DNA of 64,000 bases, from NCBI GenBank assembly GCA_963724765.1, contig CAVRVY010000004.1, positions 1,688,474-1,752,473 of the forward strand. Direction: 5' to 3'. This document shows, piece after piece, positions 47,720 to 61,250 of the stretch. A program made the translations under genes and the position numbers. Positions within the stretch are counted from its first letter, which is position 1; every line of letters starts with the position of its first letter. The notes beneath the pieces were generated by a model. It was given only the letters and a program-made list of their open reading frames with translations, did no database searches and was not told the origin of the DNA. This stretch comes from an uncultured delta proteobacterium (GTDB taxonomy: Bacteria > Desulfobacterota > Binatia > Binatales > Binataceae).

Positions 47720-48260
47720 ATACGCGCGCCCGCGCTTACTTGGTGCGCAATCCACGCTGCCGTGGGATGCTGCGTAACATCGAACCGCACAATCCTTCTG
47801 CGACCGTGAGTCAGGATGATCATGACGTAGAGCAATCGAAACGAGGTCGACACGGCGACCAACTGTCGATGGCAGCGATGCCGATTGCTTCGTTGTGCAG
47901 GAAGCTACGCCACGTCGGCCAAGGCGTTCCGACTCGCCGCACCATGTAGTTTGCGACCGTGGCTTGGCTGACCTCAAGGCCGAGCTTCAAGAGCTCGCCG
48001 TGGATGCGGGGCGCACCCCAGAGTGGGTTAGCGCTGTTCATCTGCCGGATCAGATCACGAACTTCGCGATCTACTGACGGCCGTCCAGACCTTGAACGCC
48101 AGCGCCAATAGAGCCGGAAGCCTTGGCGGTGCCAGTGGACCACGGTGGCCGGTTTCACCAACACCATGATGTTCAGGCACCCCGGCCAGATACTTCACTT
48201 CGATAGCAATTCTCGCGAGCTGCTCAAATCCCGGTTCTCATGGAGTTTTTGGTAGGGACA
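47720..48260 (-). mobile_element. internally deleted IS481-like element
   Basis: near-identical to 12290-12490; WGAPRIHGELLKLG..WRSFLHN; end TGTCCCTACCAAAAAC. Confidence 0.8.
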
Positions 48261-49149: not shown

Positions 49150-50301
49150 ATGCAGAGGCGCATCGACGTTGTTCCAACTATGAATCAAAAGAAGCCGGTA
49201 CAAGATAGACCTCTGTCACCGCCGAGAGTTCGGAGAGCTCTGAGCGTCACGAATGCGGGCTTGGCACAACTAACGGTGGGCATTGTTCTTCTCGCGAGTG
49301 TAGTCGCATGCCTGGCGCAGGAGTGGTCGCGAGTGCCGGCTCCGACGGCGCCTGTTCCGCTTTTCTCGCCACGGCAACTCGATCAAATGCTAGCGCCGAT
49401 TGCACTCTATCCAGATCCTCTGATCGCCCAGATTCTCACGGCCGCGACCTACCCGCTCGAGGTGGTCGAGGCAGATCGCTGGCTCCAGGTTCCCGCCAAT
49501 GCAGCGCTCAAGGGTGACCATTTGGCAGCGGCGCTCGAGCTTCAGCCATGGGATCCGAGCATAAAGTCGCTCGTTTCTTTCCCTCGGATCCTGAAGATGA
49601 TGGACGACAACCTCGAATGGACAGAGAAGCTGGGCGATGCCTTCCTGGCCCAGCAGGCTGACGTAATGGATTCAGTGCAACGCCTGCGCAGCAGGGCCAA
49701 AGCTGCGGGAGCTCTCGCATCGAGCGCTCAACAAGTCGTGTCAGCCCAGGACAACATCATTACGGTGGTGCCGGCGGTCCCGGGAACCGTATATGTTCCC
49801 ATTTACAATCCGACCCTGGTCTACGGCGTCTGGCCTTGGCCTGAGTACCCGCCTTTTTACTTTTGGCCCTGGCCGGGTTTCGTCATCGGGTTTGGGATCG
49901 GCATTCCGATCATCTACCCGCTATGGGGCTGGTATCACTGGGATTGGTATCGCCATCGACTGCACATCAACGTCGCCAGGTTCAACGAGCTCAACGTTCA
50001 TCGTCCGCCAGTCACGTCCGATATCTGGCAGCACGACCCGCTCCACCGCGACGGCGTCCCCTATCGTGACGCCGCAACCCGGGCTCGTTTCCAAGGTCCC
50101 GTTTCTCGTGAAGCCAGTCTCAGATCGCGTGGCTATCCGGTCGGCGCTCCATCACGCGGCGCGGTGCATGCGCCGCCGGTCTTCGAGTCCTTCGGGCCAG
50201 GAGCCGAGGTTCGGGCCCATGCGGCCCGCGGAGCCAGCTCTATGGGAGGGTTTCGCGCAGGCGGCGCAGGCTTCGGCGGACGCGGTGGGGCTCGACGTTA
50301 G
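49150..50301 (+). CDS. DUF3300-domain exported protein
   Basis: QLDQMLAPIALYPDPLIAQILTAATYPLEV, WDPSIKSL, VYVPIYNP, WQHDP.HR.GVPY. Confidence 0.88.
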   Translation: MQRRIDVVPTMNQKKPVQDRPLSPPRVRRALSVTNAGLAQLTVGIVLLASVVACLAQEWSRVPAPTAPVPLFSPRQLDQMLAPIALYPDPLIAQILTAATYPLEVVEADRWLQVPANAALKGDHLAAALELQPWDPSIKSLVSFPRILKMMDDNLEWTEKLGDAFLAQQADVMDSVQRLRSRAKAAGALASSAQQVVSAQDNIITVVPAVPGTVYVPIYNPTLVYGVWPWPEYPPFYFWPWPGFVIGFGIGIPIIYPLWGWYHWDWYRHRLHINVARFNELNVHRPPVTSDIWQHDPLHRDGVPYRDAATRARFQGPVSREASLRSRGYPVGAPSRGAVHAPPVFESFGPGAEVRAHAARGASSMGGFRAGGAGFGGRGGARR

Positions 50302-50317
50302 GTGGAAAGGAATCACG

Positions 50318-51262
50318 ATGGGAACACGCAAGAACGGTCACAGAATGATGCGGCTAGGTGTCGCAGCGCTGAGCGTTGTCGCCACATTGTCGACCGCGAG
50401 AGCATGCGCGTTTGCTGCCGGCGCGCAGCAGGAGACCTTTTCCGCGCCCGAGAAGGCAGTGGATGCTCTCATTGCGGCAAACCGCAGTGGGAACTCAGCC
50501 GCACTTCTGAAGATCTTAGGACCCGAGTCGGAGAAGTTGATTAGTTCCGGCGATCCCGTGGCCGACAAGACAGCGAGGAAGCGTTTCGTTGCGGCATACG
50601 ACGTTTCGCACAGGCTCGAGAGCCGACGTCCGGACAACGTGGTCCTTATCGTCGGCAAGGAGCACTGGCCCTTGCCGATCCCGCTCGTACGGACAGGCAA
50701 CCTTTGGCACTTCGACACCAAGGCCGGTGAGAGGGAGATCCTTGATCGACGAATCGGCCGCAATGAGTTGAAGGTGATCGAGGTTTGCCGCATCTACGTC
50801 GAGGCTCAGCGCGAATACGCCAGCGAGGATCGTTTGGGTAGCGGGCACCTCGAATACGCCCAGCATCTCCTGAGCACCTCGGACAAGCACGATGGACTCT
50901 ATTGGCCTACGAGTGGCGCCGAAAAACAAAGCCCTTTGGGTCCGCTGATCGCCAAGGCACGCGCTGCCGGTTATTTCGCCAAGGACAACGAATCGAAGCC
51001 ATTTTACGGGTATTACTACGAGATCCTCACACGCCAAGGGCCGAACGCACCGGGCGGCGCCAAAGACTACGTCGTGGATGGCCACATGACCGGGGGCTTC
51101 GCGCTGATAGCCTTCCCTGCGAGGTATGGTGACTCCGGCGTCATGACATTCATCGTCAGTCAAAACGGCATCGTCTATCAAAAGGATCTTGGTCCCGAGA
51201 CCGCGTCGATCGCAGGGAATATGACGCGCTTAGACCCGGACGCGACATGGAAGACATCGTAA
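50318..51262 (+). CDS. DUF2950-domain exported protein
   Basis: WPLPIPLV, RRIGRNEL, HDGLYWP, PFYGYYY, YGDSGVMTFIV. Confidence 0.88.
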   Translation: MGTRKNGHRMMRLGVAALSVVATLSTARACAFAAGAQQETFSAPEKAVDALIAANRSGNSAALLKILGPESEKLISSGDPVADKTARKRFVAAYDVSHRLESRRPDNVVLIVGKEHWPLPIPLVRTGNLWHFDTKAGEREILDRRIGRNELKVIEVCRIYVEAQREYASEDRLGSGHLEYAQHLLSTSDKHDGLYWPTSGAEKQSPLGPLIAKARAAGYFAKDNESKPFYGYYYEILTRQGPNAPGGAKDYVVDGHMTGGFALIAFPARYGDSGVMTFIVSQNGIVYQKDLGPETASIAGNMTRLDPDATWKTS

Positions 51263-51486
51263 CCCGCCTGTCCAAGCGACCCACGCGCTTCTCATGTTCC
51301 AGCTGCCGCTTTGGAGGTCGCCGTGCTTAGTCCTTTTTCTCTACTCAGCCGCATTCCTAAATTCGAACTGAAGGAGATGGACCATTTCCACCGTGTGGGC
51401 TGTTCCCGCTTGGAGCCGGGCATGATCATAGCTCCCATATGGGTTACGGCCAGCCGCTGACCGAGCTAGACGCCCTCCGCAACCGT

Positions 51487-52582
51487 TGTTGCTACCGAAA
51501 ACCTCGTCCGGGATGACGGAGTGCGCTGGCTGTGCTAGTGGGAGGCGCGATGTTCGTGTTCCTGGCCAAGCTTCTACTCGCCGCACGATCCCGACTGAAG
51601 TCACGGGCGAGCCTCGAGGCTGAAAACCTGATTTTGCGTCGGCAGGTGATTGTTTTAAGCCGCAAGTCCCGCTCGCGAGTGCGGCTCCGGAACCCCGATC
51701 GGCTGATCTTCGTCTGGCTGTACCGATTCTTCCCGTCGATTCTGAATGCAATCGTCATAGTCAAGCCGGAGACGGTGATCCGCTGGCACCGGCGCGGCCT
51801 CCGTGCCTATTGGCGTTGGAAGTCTCGCCGGCGCGGCGGACGTCCGAGGATTGACGGTGAGATTCGGGACCTGATTCGGCGCATGAACCGAGATAACCCG
51901 TTATGGGGCGCGCCGCGGATTCACGCCGAACTGCTCATGCTTGGGATCGAGGTGGCCGAATCAACCGTCGGCAGGTACCTCCCGAGGCGGGGACGCCCAC
52001 CATCCCAAGGTTGGAGGACGTTCCTCTGCAATCACGCTGCCGGAATCGCGTCGATCGATCTGTTCGTCGTGCGCACGATATCGTTCAGGCTGCTCTATGG
52101 CTTAGTGATTTTGCGTCACGCTCGACGGCGGCTGGTTACTGTCAGCGTGACCTCCAATCCGACCGCCGAGTGGATTGCGGGTCAGGTCACTGATGCTTTC
52201 CCCTGGGATGAAGCGCCAAGTCATCTGATTCGAGACCGCGACGCTGCATTCGGTCCAGCCTATACCCGCCGCATTCGTGCAATGGGAATCCGCGATCACC
52301 CTACGGCGCCACGCTCGCCATGGCAGAACGGCCACGTCGAGCGGCTCATCGGATCAATACGTCGCGAATGCCTCGATCACGTGGTCGTGTTCGGTGAGGC
52401 GCACCTGCGTCGTGTCCTGAAGACCTACGCTTCCTATTACAACAAGGTCCGGACACACCTCTCGTTGGATAAAAATGCGCCGGACTTCCGTCGTCCTCTA
52501 TGGGTGGGCGACATCGTGCCAATTCCCATCCTTGGTGGGCTGCATCATCAATATGTCCGGCACTAAGTTTTGACTAGGTACA
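51487..52582 (+). mobile_element. apparently complete IS481-like element; transposase 51532-52566
   Basis: TGT..ACA termini with imperfect IR (TGTTGCTACCGAAAAC / TGTACCTAGTCAAAAC); DDE motifs SIDLF, IRDRD, NGHVERLIGSIRRECLD. Confidence 0.88.
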
Positions 52583-52654
52583 ACTACTGAATCCTGTTTC
52601 TTAGGAGGAACCACAAGACTTGTAGACACTGATGCCGTCTCGTTGTGCGTACGC

Positions 52655-54265
52655 TTAGACTCGTACTACGTTCAGGGTCAGGGTGACATCGTCGCGCAAT
52701 AGCGCGCGAATATGACACCCGCGCTCGGCGACTTCGACCAACCGCTTGAGCTTATCCTCACCCTCCGGGGTGGAGATCCGCAATTCCAGATTGATCGCCT
52801 TAACGTGCCCGGTTTCGGTGCATCGGCCCGAAAGCGAGGCCGCAGCCAAATCAAAGTTGCGCGCCCGTGCCGCGACTCGCAGCGACATCAACAGACACGA
52901 GCCCAAGGCGCCCATGAACGATGTAACCGGGTCGGGCCCCTCATCCGGTTCAGCTGAATTGGTCCAGCCGATCGACCCGTGACGAACGCTGGTCCTAAGC
53001 CCATCGCCGCTGAACTCGACCGCAACCTCGCGCTTCGCAAACGCCAGTGCTGGTGCCGCCGCGGACACACCGGGAAACTCGGCGGCCTCAAGCAACTGCT
53101 TGACCTTGACGGTAAAGCGGGAGGCCGTCGCGCCATCGATGCCGCGATGGTCGTAGGCGACCGCTATCTGCATCGCAGCGCGCACCTCCGCCCGCCCATC
53201 GATCGCGAGCACTTCGTCGCAGACCGCGCCCGCAAATATGAGGGCCGCCTGGGGCGCGAAGATCACTGGTGTGCCGTTCTCGACGCCGAACGCGCCCAGA
53301 TTGGAGACCGTGAAGGTGGCGCCCTCTAGCTCCGCGGGCGCAAGTTTCTTGGCGCGTGCTCTCTCGGCCAACTGGTTGACGCGTGCGCTCAACTCCGCTG
53401 GCGTCATCAAGTGGGCGTCGTGCACTACCGGCACCACCAGGCCCTCGGGCGTATCAACTGCTACGCCAAGGTTCACTCGGTCGTAGATAAGCATCTCGCT
53501 TTCAGCGAAAGCGGCGTTGATGCGCGGATTGTCTGTCAAGGCTTTCGCGGCAGCGTAAAGAATCAAATCCGTCACTGACAGATGGCTGCCGGCGGCATTG
53601 AAGGCTTTGCGCGCCGCAAGCGCCCGGCTCATGTCCACTCGCACCATTTGCACGAAATGCGGAACGCTTTGCCAGCTCGCCACGAGGTTGCGGGCGCCGA
53701 TTTGCTGAATCCGGGTAAGCTTCTCGCGGCGTGCCGGCACCAGGGCGCCCGCAGCGGGTGGCGCGGATACGCCGGCCGATGGAGCGGCTGGCGCCGCCCT
53801 GAGCGCGCCAATTGCAGCGCGTACATCGTCTTCAGTCACTGCGCCGGCGCTACCATGACCGACGATACGCCCGAGGTCGATCCCATGCTCAGCGGCCAAC
53901 CGTCGGGCACGGGGCGAAGCGAGCGTGCGGCGTGCGGCCGGAGCGCCACCCTTAACAGGTGCTCCGGCGCGCGCCTGGGTGGGCGCCGGGGCCCCCGGCG
54001 AATCGCCAATCTGCACCGGTGATTCACCCGGGGTAAGCAATATCACTAGCATACCGCCGACCGCCACCGTGTCACCCTCGCGCGCGGCGTGTGGGCCCAT
54101 TACACCCGCAACCGGTGACTCGACTTCGACCTCGGTCTTGTCGGTCTCGATTGTGAGGATGGCCTCGCCCTCGCGGACTGGCTCACCGGGTTGTTTATGC
54201 CAGTGAATGACTTTGCCCTCGCTCATCGTATGTCCGAGCTTGGGCATCTGGATCGCTGTCGCCAT
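52655..54265 (-). CDS. 2-oxoacid/acetoin dehydrogenase E2 fused to a C-terminal OsmC-like domain
   Basis: lipoyl ETDKT, PSBD ASPRARRLA, catalytic DHRGIDG; then GPDPVTSFMGALGSCL..VAERGCHI. Confidence 0.88.
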   Translation of the reverse strand: MATAIQMPKLGHTMSEGKVIHWHKQPGEPVREGEAILTIETDKTEVEVESPVAGVMGPHAAREGDTVAVGGMLVILLTPGESPVQIGDSPGAPAPTQARAGAPVKGGAPAARRTLASPRARRLAAEHGIDLGRIVGHGSAGAVTEDDVRAAIGALRAAPAAPSAGVSAPPAAGALVPARREKLTRIQQIGARNLVASWQSVPHFVQMVRVDMSRALAARKAFNAAGSHLSVTDLILYAAAKALTDNPRINAAFAESEMLIYDRVNLGVAVDTPEGLVVPVVHDAHLMTPAELSARVNQLAERARAKKLAPAELEGATFTVSNLGAFGVENGTPVIFAPQAALIFAGAVCDEVLAIDGRAEVRAAMQIAVAYDHRGIDGATASRFTVKVKQLLEAAEFPGVSAAAPALAFAKREVAVEFSGDGLRTSVRHGSIGWTNSAEPDEGPDPVTSFMGALGSCLLMSLRVAARARNFDLAAASLSGRCTETGHVKAINLELRISTPEGEDKLKRLVEVAERGCHIRALLRDDVTLTLNVVRV

Positions 54266-54330
54266 TGGGTAGCCGGAAGTTTGTAGCGCTGGACGCCTTG
54301 GCGCCTGGCCAGCATAAATTAACTGTCAGT

Positions 54331-55305
54331 CTAGGCCAGTAGTTCGCGGCATGCGTCGTAAATCTTCTGCTCGTTCGGGAGCACGAACTTCTCGAGTACC
54401 GCGGAAGTTGGAATCGGCACGTCGGGCATCGCGACCCGGCGGAGCGGCCGTTCGAGGTAATCTAGCGCCTCCTCCATCAGCATCGCGCCGATCTCCGCAC
54501 CCACTCCGAGAGTTTTGTAGGCTTCCTCGGCAACAACGATCCTGCCGGTCTTCTTTACAGACTCGATTATCGTCGGACGGTCGAACGGGTTGAGCGAGCG
54601 CGGATCGATGACCTCTATGTTGTAGCCTTCCTGGGCCAGTCGCGCGGCCACCTTGAGCGCCTTAGGCACCATTGCGGAGAGCGCGACTAGCGTCAGCGCA
54701 TCACCTTCGCGACGGATCGCGGCCTTGCCCATCGGCACCAGCAGGTCGGGATCCTCAGACACCTCGCCTTTGGTCGCGTAGAGCAGTTTGTGTTCGAAGT
54801 ATAAGACCGGATCATCGCTGCGGATGGCGCTCTTGAGCAACCCCTTGGCGTCAGCAGGAGTGGCCGGCGACACGATACGCAGCCCGGGTGTGTGCATGAA
54901 GAAGGCTTCGGGGCACTGGCCGTGCTCTGGGCCTACCCCGGCCGCGCCCGACGGGCATCGAACGACCATTGGCACTGTAAACGCGCCGCCATGCACGTAG
55001 CGCCACATTCCTGCTTTAAGCACGATTTCGTCGGCGGCGGTGAACAGAAAGTCGGCGAACTGCAATTCCACTATCGGCCGCAGGCCCGTGATCGCGGCGC
55101 CGACCCCGGCGCCCACGATCGCATTTTCTGAAATCGGCGTGTCAAAAACACGTTCCTCACCGAACTCTTGCTTGAGGCCCGCGGTAATCTTGAAGATTCC
55201 GCCGAAGTTGGCGACGTCCTCGCCGTACAAGATCACGGAAGGATCGCGCCTCATCTCCTCGGCTATTGCCTCGTTGATCGCTCGCGCGTATGTGATTGTG
55301 CGCAT
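54331..55305 (-). CDS. TPP-dependent dehydrogenase E1 beta subunit
   Basis: GEDVA, RVFDTPISE, DAKGLLKSAI, EHKLLY. Confidence 0.93.
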   Translation of the reverse strand: MRTITYARAINEAIAEEMRRDPSVILYGEDVANFGGIFKITAGLKQEFGEERVFDTPISENAIVGAGVGAAITGLRPIVELQFADFLFTAADEIVLKAGMWRYVHGGAFTVPMVVRCPSGAAGVGPEHGQCPEAFFMHTPGLRIVSPATPADAKGLLKSAIRSDDPVLYFEHKLLYATKGEVSEDPDLLVPMGKAAIRREGDALTLVALSAMVPKALKVAARLAQEGYNIEVIDPRSLNPFDRPTIIESVKKTGRIVVAEEAYKTLGVGAEIGAMLMEEALDYLERPLRRVAMPDVPIPTSAVLEKFVLPNEQKIYDACRELLA

Positions 55306-55335
55306 CTTCGATACTTCCCGCCGTACGGCTTTGAC

Positions 55336-56295
55336 CTAATTGGCGTAGACATCATCCAGCGCTGACTCTGGCCGGAGGGACTGCGCCGCCTGCATAACAG
55401 CGACGGCCTGATCGATCTGTGCCCTGACCTCAGCATTGATTTTCGCAATCTCCGCCTCGTTCAGGATCTTCGCTTCCGTCAACTTGCGCTCATAAGCCGC
55501 AAGTGGATCACGCCGCCATTCCTTCTCGACTTCTTCGCGCGAGCGGTAGTCGTCGGGGTCGCCGATCCAGTGTCCCCACAGGCGATAGGTCTTGGCTTCA
55601 ATCAGCGAGGGACCTTCGCCGCGCCGGGCGCGCGCGACGGCCTCTGCTACGGCTTCATACACCTGGACGACGTCGTTGCCGTCCACCATCTTGCCCGGCA
55701 TGTTATAACCTTTGGCGCGATCCACGATGTCCGGATTCGCGGTGGACGTGGCTGTTGGCACGGAGACCGCCCAGCCGTTGTTCTCGCACAGGAAGATCAC
55801 AGGCAGCCTTCGCACCGCGCACAAGTTCGCGCTCTCGTGAAAGGTGCCGCGGTTCGACGTCCCGTCGCCAAAGAAGCAGAGCACGACCTTGTCCTGTTTT
55901 TTGATCTTGATCGAGAGCCCAGCGCCGGTAGCTATGGGAAAGCATCCGCCCAGCGTTCCGCTCTCGCCCAACACTCCGCGTGCCGGATCGACAACGTGCA
56001 TCACGCCGCCGCGGCCCTTGTTCGTACCACCTTCCTTGCCGGCGAGGTCGCACAGTATCCTATCGAGCGGGATCCCGCGCGCCACCCAGTAGGCGACCCC
56101 GCGATGCGCATACATCATGTAGTCATCCGGGCGTAGGGCAGCAATCGCCGCCACCTGGAGCGCCTCCTGGCCAACCCCCGGATGCATGAAGCCGCCCGCT
56201 TGTCCGCTCTTGATGAGCTCGGCGATGCGCTCTTCGAGCCGACGGCTCAAGATCATCTTGCGGTAGATGTCGAGTCTAAGCTTCTCATCCATCAT
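55336..56295 (-). CDS. TPP-dependent dehydrogenase E1 alpha subunit
   Basis: HPGVGQEA, GDGTSNRG..ENN TPP motif, TYRLWGH. Confidence 0.93.
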   Translation of the reverse strand: MMDEKLRLDIYRKMILSRRLEERIAELIKSGQAGGFMHPGVGQEALQVAAIAALRPDDYMMYAHRGVAYWVARGIPLDRILCDLAGKEGGTNKGRGGVMHVVDPARGVLGESGTLGGCFPIATGAGLSIKIKKQDKVVLCFFGDGTSNRGTFHESANLCAVRRLPVIFLCENNGWAVSVPTATSTANPDIVDRAKGYNMPGKMVDGNDVVQVYEAVAEAVARARRGEGPSLIEAKTYRLWGHWIGDPDDYRSREEVEKEWRRDPLAAYERKLTEAKILNEAEIAKINAEVRAQIDQAVAVMQAAQSLRPESALDDVYAN

Positions 56296-56353
56296 CGGAG
56301 TTTCTCCCATGCGGTCTGGAATCGCACGCGCACTTGCCTGAACCGATAGCGCA

Positions 56354-57139
56354 TCACGGCCGCAGTGGCGCGCGTCCCAGCACGATTCCGCCATCCACCG
56401 CCACCACCTGTCCGGTGATATTCGCGGCCCGATCCGAGCACAGAAACGCGACCGTGTTACCGATATCTTCAGGCGTCTGTTCCCGACCCAGCGGAGTCAG
56501 CGTGCGCACCGTCATGTCGAAAGTTCCGCGTGCCCGCTCGGCGCCACCTCCAATTGCCGCGCCCAGGTCTTCCCAGACCTTCGTGTAGATCAGGCCGGGT
56601 GCGACCGCATTGACCCGGATTCCCTTGGGGCCCACCTGCAGCGCCAGCGTGCGGGTATAGGAGATGACCGCGGCCTTCGCCGCCGCGTATGCGGCCAGAA
56701 ACGGCGTCGCCAGCATTCCCGCGATGGACGACGTATTGCATACCGCGCCGCCGGCGACCATCCGCGGCACAATCTCCCGGGACACGATGTAGACCGAGTT
56801 TAGATTCAGCTCGACATAACGCCGCCAGATCTCCACGCTGTGCCATTCGGCGTCCCGTCCGCTCTCGAACCATCCCAACTCTCCGCCACCTGCGTTGTTG
56901 CACAGCACGTCGGGATGCGGCCCGAACTTCGCCGCGATCGCTTCCATCACCGCATGGATCTGCGCCTCGTCGGTCACGTCGCCATTGAAGCCTTCGATTC
57001 GATCCGCCATGTCCGCCGGCACAGGCACAGGCGCACGATCGATCACCGCTATCCGATCCACCACCTTGTCGGCCAGCAGAGCACGCACGATTCCCAGACC
57101 GAGCCCGCGGGCACCGCCCGTCACAATCGCGTATTTCAT
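56354..57139 (-). CDS. SDR-family oxidoreductase
   Basis: TGGARGLG, NNAG, YAAAK, IRVNAVAPG. Confidence 0.93.
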   Translation of the reverse strand: MKYAIVTGGARGLGLGIVRALLADKVVDRIAVIDRAPVPVPADMADRIEGFNGDVTDEAQIHAVMEAIAAKFGPHPDVLCNNAGGGELGWFESGRDAEWHSVEIWRRYVELNLNSVYIVSREIVPRMVAGGAVCNTSSIAGMLATPFLAAYAAAKAAVISYTRTLALQVGPKGIRVNAVAPGLIYTKVWEDLGAAIGGGAERARGTFDMTVRTLTPLGREQTPEDIGNTVAFLCSDRAANITGQVVAVDGGIVLGRAPLRP

Positions 57140-58515: not shown

Positions 58516-59730
58516 ATGGACTTCGACTACACACCAGAGCAGCAGCAATTCCGCAGCCAAGTTCGCGCATGGTTGGAGACGACGGCCTCGGAACTTTTTG
58601 GCGATCTTGTCGACTCGTCGAGTGCGACTGTCGAAAGCCTGCTCTACAGCCACGACGACCAACTCTGGCAGAAGATACTCGCGTACCATCGGCGGCTCCA
58701 CGGCGCGGGGTACCTCGCTCTTCACTGGCCGAAGCAGTGGGGCGGGAGTGAAGCCGGCGTGGTCGAGCAGTCGATTTACCAGGACGAGGCTTAGCGCCTG
58801 GGGCTCCCTTTATACGGCGCGAACAATTTCGCGATCGATCGGATTGGTCCGACGATTATGCTGTTGGGCAGCGAGGAGCAAAAGAAACGGTTTCTAGCTC
58901 CGATGCTCACAGGTGAAGAAATTTGGTGCCAAGGATACTCCGAACCCAACGCAGGTTCCGATCTGGCGGGACTTCAAACGCGGGCGGTGCTCGAGGGCGA
59001 CTCGTTTGTGCTGAACGGCCAGAAGGTATGGACCAGCAATGCGCATCGCGCGCAGTACCAGGTCCTACTCGTTCGCACTGATCCAGCCGCGCCCAAGCAC
59101 AGAGGAATTTCGTATCTGCTTGTCGATCTGCGCAGTCCGGGAATTACGGTCCGGCCTCTCATGCAGATTACCGGCGAGATGGGATTCAACGAGGTCTTTT
59201 ACGACGGAGTGCGAGTGCCGAGGCAAAACCTGGTCGGCAAGCTGAACGAAGGGTGGCAAGTGTCGATCGCAACGCTGATGTTTCAGCGCGCCTCGGGCGG
59301 AGTGAGCCATCCGGTGGAACGCACGATGGGCGAATTGGTCACGCTTGCAAAGACAGTCGCCTTTGACGGCATGCCCGCGTCGGAGAATCCATACGTCCGC
59401 CAGAAGCTCGCGCAGTTTGCCGCGGAGGCGCGATGTATCCGGCTTGGCCGCTATCGCGCGATGAGCGCTCAGCTCAAGGGTCGACCGCCCGGGCCGGCGA
59501 GTTCGATTGGAAAACTATGCGCGACGGAACTCAACTTGCGCTTGGCAATGTTTGCCGACGAGATGCTCGGTCTTTACGCGAACCTCGAAAGCGAATCGAT
59601 TGGAACTGTCGAGTGCGGCAAATGGACCAACCGGATAATTGCTGCCCGGGAGTTTACGATCGCCGGCGGTACCAGCGAAATCCAGCGCAACATCATCGGC
59701 GAGCGCGTGCTGGGCTTACCTAAGGGCTGA
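58516..59730 (+). pseudogene. acyl-CoA dehydrogenase with an in-frame TAG at 58792
   Basis: WPKQWGG..QDEA*RLGLP..WCQGYSEPNAGSDLA, GQKVWTS, TIAGGTSEIQRNIIGERVLGLP. Confidence 0.88.
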
Positions 59731-60360: not shown

Positions 60361-60399
60361 GGACCAAATTGAGGGAGATCTTGACGAAGCACCAGAAAC

Positions 60400-61092
60400 T
60401 CAGGGGACGGTGGCGAGGCCGAGCGAGTCGGCGTCCCGTCCTACGGCTACCGGTGGGTGACACTCCAGCTGCGTCGCAACGGCGTCACGGTAAACCACAA
60501 GAAGGCGATGAAGCTCATGCGCGAGCAGGCGCTCAGCGTGCGGCCGCGGCGCCGTTACATGAAGACGACCGACAGCGATCATGGCGGCCGTATCTTTTCC
60601 AACCTCGCCAGGGACATCGCACCGACCGGTCCCAACCAGCTCTTGGTTGCCGATCTGACCTACATCGCGATCGCGCGGAACTTCGCGTATCTCGCTGTCA
60701 TCCTGGATGCCTGGTCGCGACGCGTGGTTGGCTATGCGCTGGCGCGCTTCATGGCCTGACGCTGGCCGCTCTGAAGTCGGCGATTGAGAGTCGAAAGCCG
60801 CCAGCCGGATGTGTCCATCATTCAGATCGAGGATCCCAATACGCGGCCGAGGCATACCGCGAACTGCTCGCGGCCCACGGACTGCGGGGCTCGATGGGCC
60901 GGCGCGGCAACCCCTACGACAATGTCCAGGCCGAGAGCTTCATGAAGACGCTCAAGGTCGAGGCTGTCTACCGGGCGGAGTATGAGACGTTCATTGACCT
61001 GGTCGCCGACCTGCCGCACTTCATCGACAAGATCTACAACGCGACCCGGCTCCATTCCGCACTCGGCTATCGGAGCCCGATCGATTTCGAGG
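60400..61092 (+). mobile_element. IS3-family OrfB transposase pseudogene
   Basis: [23 protein letters not shown], frameshift, [33 protein letters not shown]. Confidence 0.88.
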
Positions 61093-61250
61093 TTCAACAT
61101 GGAGATAAGCGAGATTCCCGCGTGAGCGCGGCTCGCGGCAAAATCGACTCTCGGACCAACATACAGAAAGTGGTACAAACTCTGACAGCAGGCCGTACGT
61201 TTATCGAGGTATGACAAGGGCGACGATTTTCAGGGGTCGGAGGGCAGACC

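Follow-up and report, generated by a model that had tools for sequence, protein, structure and literature searches.

What does an OsmC-like domain do at the end of a lipoyl acyltransferase? This question is raised by a stretch of 64,000 nucleotides (positions 1,688,474 to 1,752,473 of contig CAVRVY010000004.1, written C4:1688474-1752473; hereafter the window) from an uncultured delta proteobacterium of the Binataceae. Four tightly spaced minus-strand genes of the window (52655-57139) encode, in the order SDR-E1alpha-E1beta-E2, a short-chain dehydrogenase/reductase (SDR), the two subunits of an E1 component and an E2 acyltransferase, and the E2 chain is fused at its C-terminus to a two-Cys domain of the OsmC family. 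The answer we favor is that this domain serves thiol-redox chemistry, most probably as a hydroperoxide reductase, and that it is recharged by the dihydrolipoyl arm of its own E2 and works beside dihydrolipoamide dehydrogenase (E3); we consider the chance of this to be about even.

Architecture and conservation of the fusion

The gene order and the OsmC-like extension with both Cys residues were pointed out by a first-pass annotation made from the sequence alone, and the open reading frames (ORFs) and Pfam searches confirmed them. With the DHRGIDG motif at residues 372-378 and the end of the chain at residue 536, the C-terminus is approximately 130 residues longer than that of a normal E2, and the Pfam OsmC match spans residues 441-531. 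The part before it contains a lipoyl domain with the Lys of the ETDK motif, a peripheral-subunit-binding domain (PSBD) and a catalytic domain with the His of DHRxxDG and the Ser (Table 1); the best explanation of these motifs is that E2 should be a fully competent lipoyl acyltransferase. A full-length AlphaFold (AF2) model, based on a 66-row alignment, shows four folded domains (mean predicted local distance difference test score, pLDDT, 77.6), and the linkers at 82-112, 157-173 and 402-407 have low pLDDT. The last helix of the catalytic domain covers residues 378-394, and according to the model only about 10-15 linker residues separate it from the OsmC module. This linker (396-411) is poorly conserved except for F397 (98/103).

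Homologues were searched and scored on E2 residues 396-536 alone, and of 2047 candidates 156 had E <= 1e-3. In all 120 of these 156 matches that were listed, 2-oxoacid_dh and OsmC domains are on a single chain, and many of the proteins are labelled Candidatus Binataceae by their sources. In addition, contigs from two DNA runs of two studies bridge the junction: record 2 of run X1, which may be the source sample, covers window 52884-53518 with 0 differences, and record 25 of run X2 covers 52655-53250 with 23 differing letters. Because the listed homologues are all fused and contigs of two DNA runs cross the junction, the fusion is not an assembly artefact. A further run, X17, is probably DNA. 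In run X19, which is labelled as RNA, contigs 90-95% alike were found in 21 of 30 bins and include the OsmC part, with carry-over of DNA being possible; no contig bridging the junction was present among the matches listed.

An alignment of 103 rows (the query and 102 proteins of at least 500 aa among the matches listed) was used to examine the conserved residues. Lys43, Ser321, D372, H373, R374, D377, G378, Cys457 and Cys517 are invariant in 103/103, and the remaining Cys residues of the query are poorly kept (Cys482 in 31/103, Cys349 in 4/103). Both OsmC-domain Cys residues are also invariant in 43/43 rows of an alignment of fused and stand-alone forms from four classes, and in 23/23 divergent representatives described below. 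In the 66-sequence alignment, Lys43 is again invariant, as are R113, A116, S117, P118, A120 and A124 of the PSBD. The first-pass annotation had allowed for a fusion unique to this assembly and for Cys residues that are not conserved; the fusion recurs in two families and in haloarchaea, and the Cys pair is kept throughout. The fusion of E2 and OsmC is real, widespread and old.

Fold and conserved residues of the OsmC-like domain

The domain belongs to PF02566 by its Pfam score (Table 1) and by its OsmC fold. The AF2 model of the domain, from a 43-row alignment covering four classes, has a pLDDT of 92.5. The best Foldseek matches were 1lql, 1ml8, 2onf and 2pn2 with template modelling (TM) scores of 0.77-0.84, the first three with E of about 1e-9 and TM of 0.81-0.84, and entries named Ohr or OsmC scored lower (TM 0.66-0.77; 0.73 for E. 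coli OsmC, 1nye). A sequence profile search of the PDB gave 3cje (8.9e-9), which is presumably the Jannaschia entry, 9wo1 (1.9e-8) and 2onf at the top, with E. coli OsmC (1qwi) weaker at E 0.025. By fold, the nearest structures are uncharacterised proteins of the YhfA/MPN625/Ta0195 type. The legend of Fig. 1C in PMC5384416 classes the Thermoplasma, Jannaschia and 2PN2 proteins as Ohr-like.

Section 3.1 of the same paper gives two Cys about 60 residues apart as the hallmark of the OsmC family, and the spacing of Cys457 and Cys517 is exactly 60 residues. Residues that are invariant in the fused and stand-alone forms of both families are R412, W434, D445, P446, F450, L454, C457, A466, R469, G486, I491, A513, G516 and C517. 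The domain is predicted to form a homodimer, with a score of 0.92 against 0.00 for the best of three controls, which may reflect the model's memory of solved OsmC/Ohr dimers; the same mark was reached by 20/30 proteins solved as same-chain pairs and by 1/23 solved as monomers. At least 96% of the contacts are common to the runs, and the partner pLDDT is at least 91. In the predicted dimer, Cys457 is in contact with Pro446 of the partner chain, and the interface contains residues 410-418 with R412 among them.

Distribution, loss and stand-alone forms

We examined a class sample of 401 genomes, in which the OsmC module was called at E <= 1e-10; the two unpublished genomes G600 and G731 enter the counts from this sample and nothing else. 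The module was found in 96 genomes; by family, it is present in 41/94 genomes of the window's own family (f1), in 53/55 of family f4 and in 1/1 of family f123, with none in the 17 other families of this sample. It was present in 3/401 genomes of a phylum-wide sample and in 0/10 sampled genomes of the same genus. All 12 fetched f4 loci have E1alpha-E1beta-E2-OsmC, and the SDR is visible 5' of E1alpha in 11 of them (L061 is cut by a contig end), as it is in L010. Identity to the window is 37-40% in the E2 core of f4 and 36-40% in its OsmC part, and the E2 of L067 has the same four Pfam domains.

An exhaustive profile search of 1.84 billion representatives gave 701 proteins at E <= 1e-3 and 94 at E <= 1e-10, and among the 23 representatives listed (at least 500 aa) 22 are fusions of lipoyl, catalytic and OsmC domains and one is a hydrolase fusion. 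The PSBD was found in 21/22 of these divergent fusions, and Lys43 and both Cys are invariant in the alignment of the 23, which are 16-38% identical to its first row. By their source names, two of these clusters are haloarchaeal: one, of 605 aa, is assigned to Halorubrum sp. 48-1-W and the other, of 578 aa, to Halovalidus salilacus/Natrialbaceae. A word-indexed search around the Halorubrum form gave 7 clusters only, and a metagenome locus 94% identical to it has E1alpha-E1beta-E2-OsmC among six SDR-like matches.

The 29 class loci examined comprise 12 fusions, 16 stand-alone genes that have no E2 closer than 1.5 kb, and a single remnant. In a FastTree phylogeny of 180 modules, the main f1 stand-alone group is nested in fused f1 sequences with a support of 0.86-0.90, which suggests that the main f1 stand-alone genes are fission products of a fused ancestor. 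A single clade of all E2-fused modules was not obtained: with midpoint rooting, even when one of them is left aside, the smallest clade that contains the others comprises all 180 leaves, so that the tree does not fix the number of fusion events. The best match in the ESM Atlas is a 138-aa OsmC cluster whose commonest phylum is Candidatus Binatota, with a score of 0.83 that, being below 0.9, makes it a lead only.

The stand-alone gene of f1 (145 aa) has a glutathione S-transferase (GST) gene 4 bp downstream, followed by a luciferase-like monooxygenase; neighbors called with a crude ORF picker were GST in 7/12 and the monooxygenase in 9/12 loci (L045-L056). Directly upstream of the f4 stand-alone gene (144 aa) there are a DsbD_TM-AhpC/TSA redoxin fusion (10/12 loci) and a glyoxalase-family gene (7/12). 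The whole f4 block (L069-L080) consists of the DsbD_TM-AhpC/TSA fusion, the glyoxalase-family gene, the OsmC-like gene, a 254-aa protein, a histidine phosphatase and an APH-type kinase.

Loss of the operon was also observed. A DNA search of 17 same-genus genomes was made, and what follows holds among the matches listed (there are 270 further matches). At least five of these genomes keep the SDR alone at 80-87% identity, and genome G792 has a remnant, 93% identical, that joins the 5' part of E1alpha (55840-56337) directly to the end of OsmC/E2 (window 52616-53189). Locus L007 (9490-10519) has the same deletion as G792 (C5:430507-431579), and L014 (1501-2272) has an independent one. These remnants join an E1alpha fragment to the last 37-57 residues of the catalytic domain and an intact-looking OsmC module. 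The E2-OsmC module is accessory and sometimes lost. The remnants may show an intermediate stage in the origin of stand-alone OsmC-like genes from the fusion. In some assemblies (L008/L017 and L020), operons that are well conserved in other respects have frame breaks within E1beta and E2, which look like assembly indel errors rather than decay.

A lipoyl-type domain is joined directly to the OsmC module in 8 of the 150 best representatives (P0127, P0156, P0172, P0173, P0182, P0194, P0202 and P0228; 207-258 aa), all with both Cys kept. Six of the eight exceed the Pfam Biotin_lipoyl cutoff, and one cluster is named Candidatus Binataceae. Their lipoylation column reads E, Q, A, G, G, T, H and G, and with Lys in 0/8 we dropped these proteins as Rosetta-stone proof of a lipoyl partner. 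Two OsmC-module profile matches on one chain occur in 4 of the same 150, among them P0192, P0207 and P0210; Pfam confirmed the double OsmC of P0192, and P0210 is also an alpha/beta-hydrolase fusion.

Proposed electron donor and acceptor of the domain

In the scheme that we favor, the lipoyl arm would be reduced in one of two ways: E1 would acylate it reductively and the acyl group would then pass to CoA, or NADH would reduce it through the unlinked lipoamide dehydrogenase of the cell working in reverse. The dihydrolipoyl arm may then reduce the Cys457/Cys517 redox centre of the OsmC-like domain, and this centre would reduce a hydroperoxide, which is most likely organic. The domain would be an extra on-board electron exit, or a protective site for the lipoyl arm, alongside E3. 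Speculatively, its purpose could be to scavenge peroxides or peracids from side reactions of thiamine diphosphate (ThDP) or flavin enzymes.

We consider the site to be served by the E2's own arm because the fusion keeps the invariant Lys43 together with the Cys pair, and because of what is reported on lipoyl groups and Ohr/OsmC proteins. Both PMC8945050 and PMC5384416 state, with reference to Cussiol 2010, that lipoylated proteins reduce Ohr/OsmC, a point which the first-pass annotation had made as well. According to section 4.2 of PMC8945050, the disulfides of Ohr/OsmC are not reduced by the thioredoxin or glutathione systems and lipoylated proteins are required, and the discussion in PMC5384416 mentions an Ohr-like Trichomonas protein reported to be active with H and L proteins. 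The thiol-redox genes adjoining the stand-alone homologues (GST; DsbD-redoxin) also favor this scheme.

Several observations weigh against it, and most of them concern the residues around the Cys pair. Section 3.1 of PMC5384416 describes a conserved Arg and Glu in the Ohr and OsmC subfamilies and their lack in Ohr-like proteins: in Ohr, the Glu precedes the first Cys by about 10 residues and the Arg is in the beta1-beta2 loop, and OsmC sensu stricto has the same Glu and the Arg in the beta3-alpha1 loop. In HMMER alignments, the Glu of the NPEQLF motif of 4mh4 and 3eer aligns with Val447, which is V in 101/103. This Glu is presumably the catalytic one. No Arg was found among the three commonest residues in the beta1-beta2 loop (418-423), with R424 being lost in f4, or at any position of the beta3-alpha1 loop (438-445). 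The second Cys is followed by H or Y, the His after Cys517 being Tyr in f4, instead of the usual CP of 9wo1 and Ohr. The domain therefore falls outside the Ohr and OsmC (sensu stricto) subfamilies, in which this Glu and Arg are found, and because both Cys are kept and the Arg/Glu pair is absent it belongs, by its sequence, to the Ohr-like/YhfA group. With Val447 at the position of the catalytic Glu, peroxidase activity is itself something we infer, and membership of the Ohr-like group means that such activity is disputed: PMC5384416 gives TvOsmC as inactive in its lipoamide assay, and FTN_1133 is reported in PMC4069020 to lack thiol peroxidase activity. The distribution adds to this, as the module is patchy in its own family and missing from the sampled genomes of its own genus, deletion remnants exist (L007, G792 and L014), and stand-alone descendants persist without an E2. 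The fusions in which no lipoylation Lys remains show that the OsmC module can persist without a lipoyl arm in cis. It is because Glu and Arg are missing, because the activity of Ohr-like proteins is disputed and because of these Lys-less fusions that we rate the proposal no higher than even.

The same observations can be read as indicating a thiol-disulfide module that is not a peroxidase, such as a redox sensor or safety valve draining or gating the lipoyl arm under oxidative stress, a relay from dihydrolipoyl to another acceptor, or a guard against over-oxidation or adducts. The Cys pair is invariant and yet the Glu and Arg of proven peroxidases are missing, the nearest structures are those of the uncharacterised YhfA/MPN625/Ta0195 type, and the stand-alone homologues adjoin thiol-transfer genes (GST, DsbD-redoxin fusion) and not peroxide regulators; peroxidase assays of the Ohr-like group conflict, as the discussion in PMC5384416 relates. 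However, there is no conserved candidate acceptor gene beside the fusion, where the neighbors vary, the AhpC/TSA-type neighbor fits a peroxide context too, and the OsmC-superfamily members whose activity is stated in the relevant parts of PMC5384416 and PMC8945050 are all hydroperoxide reductases. We regard a non-peroxidase role as rather unlikely.

The first-pass annotation proposed that the domain reoxidises the lipoyl arm in place of E3, which would make it the obligatory re-oxidant of a self-contained, NAD-independent 2-oxoacid (or acyloin):hydroperoxide oxidoreductase. The conservation of the fusion and of both Cys is in agreement with this, and the genes around the fusion seem to be as well. 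As that annotation noted, the window has no dihydrolipoamide dehydrogenase: the genome (5.4 Mb) has 17 matches to TIGR01350 (lipoamide dehydrogenase), and 0/17 are inside the window. When the co-occurrence of E3 was checked, no E3-like gene was found in the fetched flanks of 19 fusion loci (the window and 18 others). This includes 5/5 fusion loci on genome contigs, 12/12 f4 loci, which have no E3-like match above 50 bits, and the haloarchaeal-type locus (1/1), where the sole match has 39 bits and is 6.6 kb away. A control locus with an ordinary E2 (L012) has E3 1.3 kb downstream.

Nevertheless, E3-less operons are the rule in this genome. Six E2 catalytic domains are encoded in it, and four of the E2 genes belong to further E1alpha-beta-E2 clusters; the nearest E3-like gene to each of the six E2 genes is 99-778 kb away (tblastn, >80 bits). 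Since no E2 gene of the genome has an E3-like gene within about 99 kb, the missing E3 near the fusion is uninformative here. One lipoamide dehydrogenase above the TIGR01350 cutoff (524 bits) is present as a solitary gene at C4:1266008-1267399. The PSBD is retained and conserved, although E1 binding alone could explain this, and the canonical peroxidase Glu is missing from the OsmC domain. In addition, the operon looks catabolic, and a carbon flux limited by peroxide would be physiologically unattractive. Replacement of E3 is thus unsupported, and we find it quite improbable. Equally, the suggestion that the adjacent insertion sequence (IS) displaced an E3 gene was ruled out, as relatives without that IS (L009-L011, the 12 f4 loci and L081) are likewise without E3. 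Of the earlier interpretation, the fusion and the link between lipoyl groups and OsmC stood, and the replacement of E3 and a canonical Ohr/OsmC domain, which has Glu where Val447 is found, did not. A long shot is a self-sufficient NAD- and E3-independent substrate:hydroperoxide oxidoreductase of E1alpha-beta and E2-OsmC, ranging from soil Binataceae-like bacteria to haloarchaea. In it, the lipoyl arm would take electrons from the oxidation of a 2-oxoacid or acyloin directly to the hydroperoxide-reducing site of the same complex, and E2 trimers might be connected by OsmC dimers at the two-fold axes.

In classical E2 cores, the C-termini of E2 form the inter-trimer two-fold contacts. With this, the very short linker and the strong homodimer prediction (with its possible memory of solved OsmC dimers) in mind, a mainly structural domain can be imagined, an obligate dimer that cross-links E2 trimers or alters core assembly and in which the Cys pair is inherited and has little weight, but this is very unlikely, as both Cys, W434, D445, P446 and R469 are absolutely kept, in stand-alone descendants as in fused forms, even where identity falls to about 35%, which points to chemistry.

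The operon and the surrounding DNA

The features of the operon are collected in Table 1. The best explanation of the four genes is a 2-oxoacid or acyloin dehydrogenase system of the heterotetrameric-E1 type, with the SDR included. The best solved-structure relative of the SDR is glucose 1-dehydrogenase, and the SDR reached no NCBIfam equivalog cutoff. The closest solved chains to E1alpha, with similar scores, are 1um9 (alpha subunit of a Thermus 2-oxo acid dehydrogenase, 2.2e-57) and human pyruvate dehydrogenase (PDH) E1alpha. Alignments with E1alpha homologues begin at about residue 28-35, and the true start is probably one of the alternative ATGs at 56310, 56295 and 56292. E1beta exceeds the subfamily cutoff of NCBIfam NF006667 (351.8 bits against 321). 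E1alpha and E2 are below all NCBIfam equivalog cutoffs, and no substrate-specific assignment was obtained from these models. Assignment as acetoin dehydrogenase (Aco) was not supported either, since NF011457 (AcoC) covers only the lipoyl region, with 83.9 bits against a cutoff of 307.

Table 1. Positions in the window of the operon genes and of the domains and key codons of E2
Feature	Position	Strand	Basis
SDR, 261 aa, first gene of the unit	56354-57139	-	Pfam adh_short_C2, 166.8 bits
E1alpha subunit (ThDP-binding)	55336-56394	-	Pfam E1_dh, 276.2 bits
E1beta subunit, 324 aa	54331-55305	-	Pfam Transket_pyr and Transketolase_C
E2 acyltransferase fused to OsmC-like domain, 536 aa and stop	52655-54265	-	four Pfam domains
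Lipoyl domain, residues 4-76	54038-54256	-	Biotin_lipoyl, 59.8 bits
Lipoyl-Lys43 codon, ETDK motif	54137-54139	-	alignment
PSBD, residues 115-149	53819-53923	-	E3_binding, 43.9 bits (cutoff 23.7)
Acyltransferase catalytic domain, residues 179-395	53081-53731	-	2-oxoacid_dh, 231.4 bits
Ser321 codon	53303-53305	-	alignment
His373 codon	53147-53149	-	DHRGIDG at residues 372-378
Short variable linker, residues 396-411	53033-53080	-	pLDDT <50 at 402-407
OsmC-family (Ohr-like/YhfA-type) two-Cys domain, residues 412-536	52658-53032	-	OsmC, 51.9 bits (cutoff 27.5)
Cys457 codon (ALGSC)	52895-52897	-	alignment
Cys517 codon (ERGC)	52715-52717	-	alignment

Genes neighboring the operon differ between lineages; luciferase-like monooxygenases recur near the fused forms of f4 and, as described above, near the stand-alone forms of f1. 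In the window, an IS element (51484-52584) with a transposase ORF of the rve_3/HTH_32 type (51532-52566, plus strand) lies directly downstream of the E2 stop codon. At least 12 further copies of it, at 75-81% identity, are in the window's genome and more are in genomes of the same genus. Upstream of the operon region there is a second transposase-like ORF (60369-61214, plus strand, 281 aa), and a composite transposon was considered; the two flanking transposase genes differ from each other. An acyl-CoA dehydrogenase-like (ACAD) gene (58516-59730, plus strand) has a single in-frame TAG at 58792-58794, after which the reading continues as a normal ACAD; it is likely a pseudogene or contains a base error. 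The IS, the second transposase and the broken ACAD gene suggest a region in flux. Further away, a repeat of about 455 bp (47736-48190) has many copies in its own and same-genus genomes, one of them at C3:1658196 with 99% identity and several at 90-93%, and at 49150-51262 (plus strand) a long ORF of 383 aa overlaps another of 489 aa in a different frame.

Relation to known systems

Some acetoin or 2-oxoacid dehydrogenase operons have their E3 encoded elsewhere. Such operons resemble the present one in having E1alpha-E1beta-E2 with an adjacent dehydrogenase and no E3, but their E2s have no OsmC domain. The alpha/beta-hydrolase-OsmC fusions (P0210, P0235 and 9wo1, a 400-aa 'Osmotically inducible protein C' and the second-best PDB profile match) have a closely related OsmC module at the C-terminus, and the GPDP motif is common to 9wo1 and the window domain; unlike the window E2, they have a hydrolase partner, no lipoyl arm and CP at the second Cys.

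Other parallels lie in the use of lipoylated proteins. In the system of Xylella fastidiosa Ohr, lipoylated SucB/PDH proteins and Lpd (Cussiol 2010, as cited in section 4.2 of PMC8945050 and in PMC5384416), a two-Cys protein of the OsmC superfamily is reduced by the dihydrolipoyl group of E2, as is proposed here. There, Ohr is a separate protein acting in trans with a catalytic Arg and Glu, whereas here the domain is fused, is Ohr-like/YhfA, and has Val at the position of the Glu. PMC5384416 cites Nyvltova 2016 for Trichomonas vaginalis OsmC, which is likewise Ohr-like without Arg and Glu and is linked to a dedicated lipoylated carrier, as its partners are the H and L proteins from a glycine cleavage system that is incomplete; its activity was not reproduced in the lipoamide assay which PMC5384416 describes. 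Hyphomicrobium denitrificans has a GcvH-like gene, for a putative carrier of this kind, beside osmC (bioRxiv 10.64898/2026.10.01.755906). In these two cases, the carrier is an H protein linked in trans or by neighborhood, and here it is E2, linked by fusion. AhpD, which is reduced by dihydrolipoamide succinyltransferase with NADH (section 4.1 of PMC8945050), has an E2 lipoyl arm as donor, as is proposed here. Its fold is unrelated to that of the fused OsmC domain, however, and it is a protein of its own which hands its electrons to a peroxiredoxin. Mycobacterium has a full AhpC-AhpD-DlaT-Lpd chain.

No description of an E2-OsmC fusion was found in the titles and abstracts returned by full-text literature searches, which did not cover supplements. 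The usual annotation of these proteins is '2-oxo acid dehydrogenase subunit E2', and some automated annotations name both domains ('E2 component/uncharacterized OsmC-like protein'), so the architecture appears to be visible in databases but undiscussed. We rate it as an extension of the known lipoyl-dependent Ohr/OsmC system by a covalent variant.

The case for lipoylated E2 as the physiological reductant of the OsmC superfamily rests on biochemistry in trans from a few organisms. The present weld of a complete E2 to an OsmC domain, in which Lys43, the His of the acyltransferase and the Cys pair do not vary from bacteria to archaea, gives a direct handle on the path of electrons from lipoyl to OsmC. 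It is present in organisms named to species or strain, Halorubrum sp. 48-1-W and Halovalidus salilacus. As the function of the large Ohr-like/YhfA group is unsettled, the fusion also provides a testable case for it. Finally, the domain is a new C-terminal decoration of the E2 core, and it could change the assembly of the megacomplex or its protection from oxidative damage.

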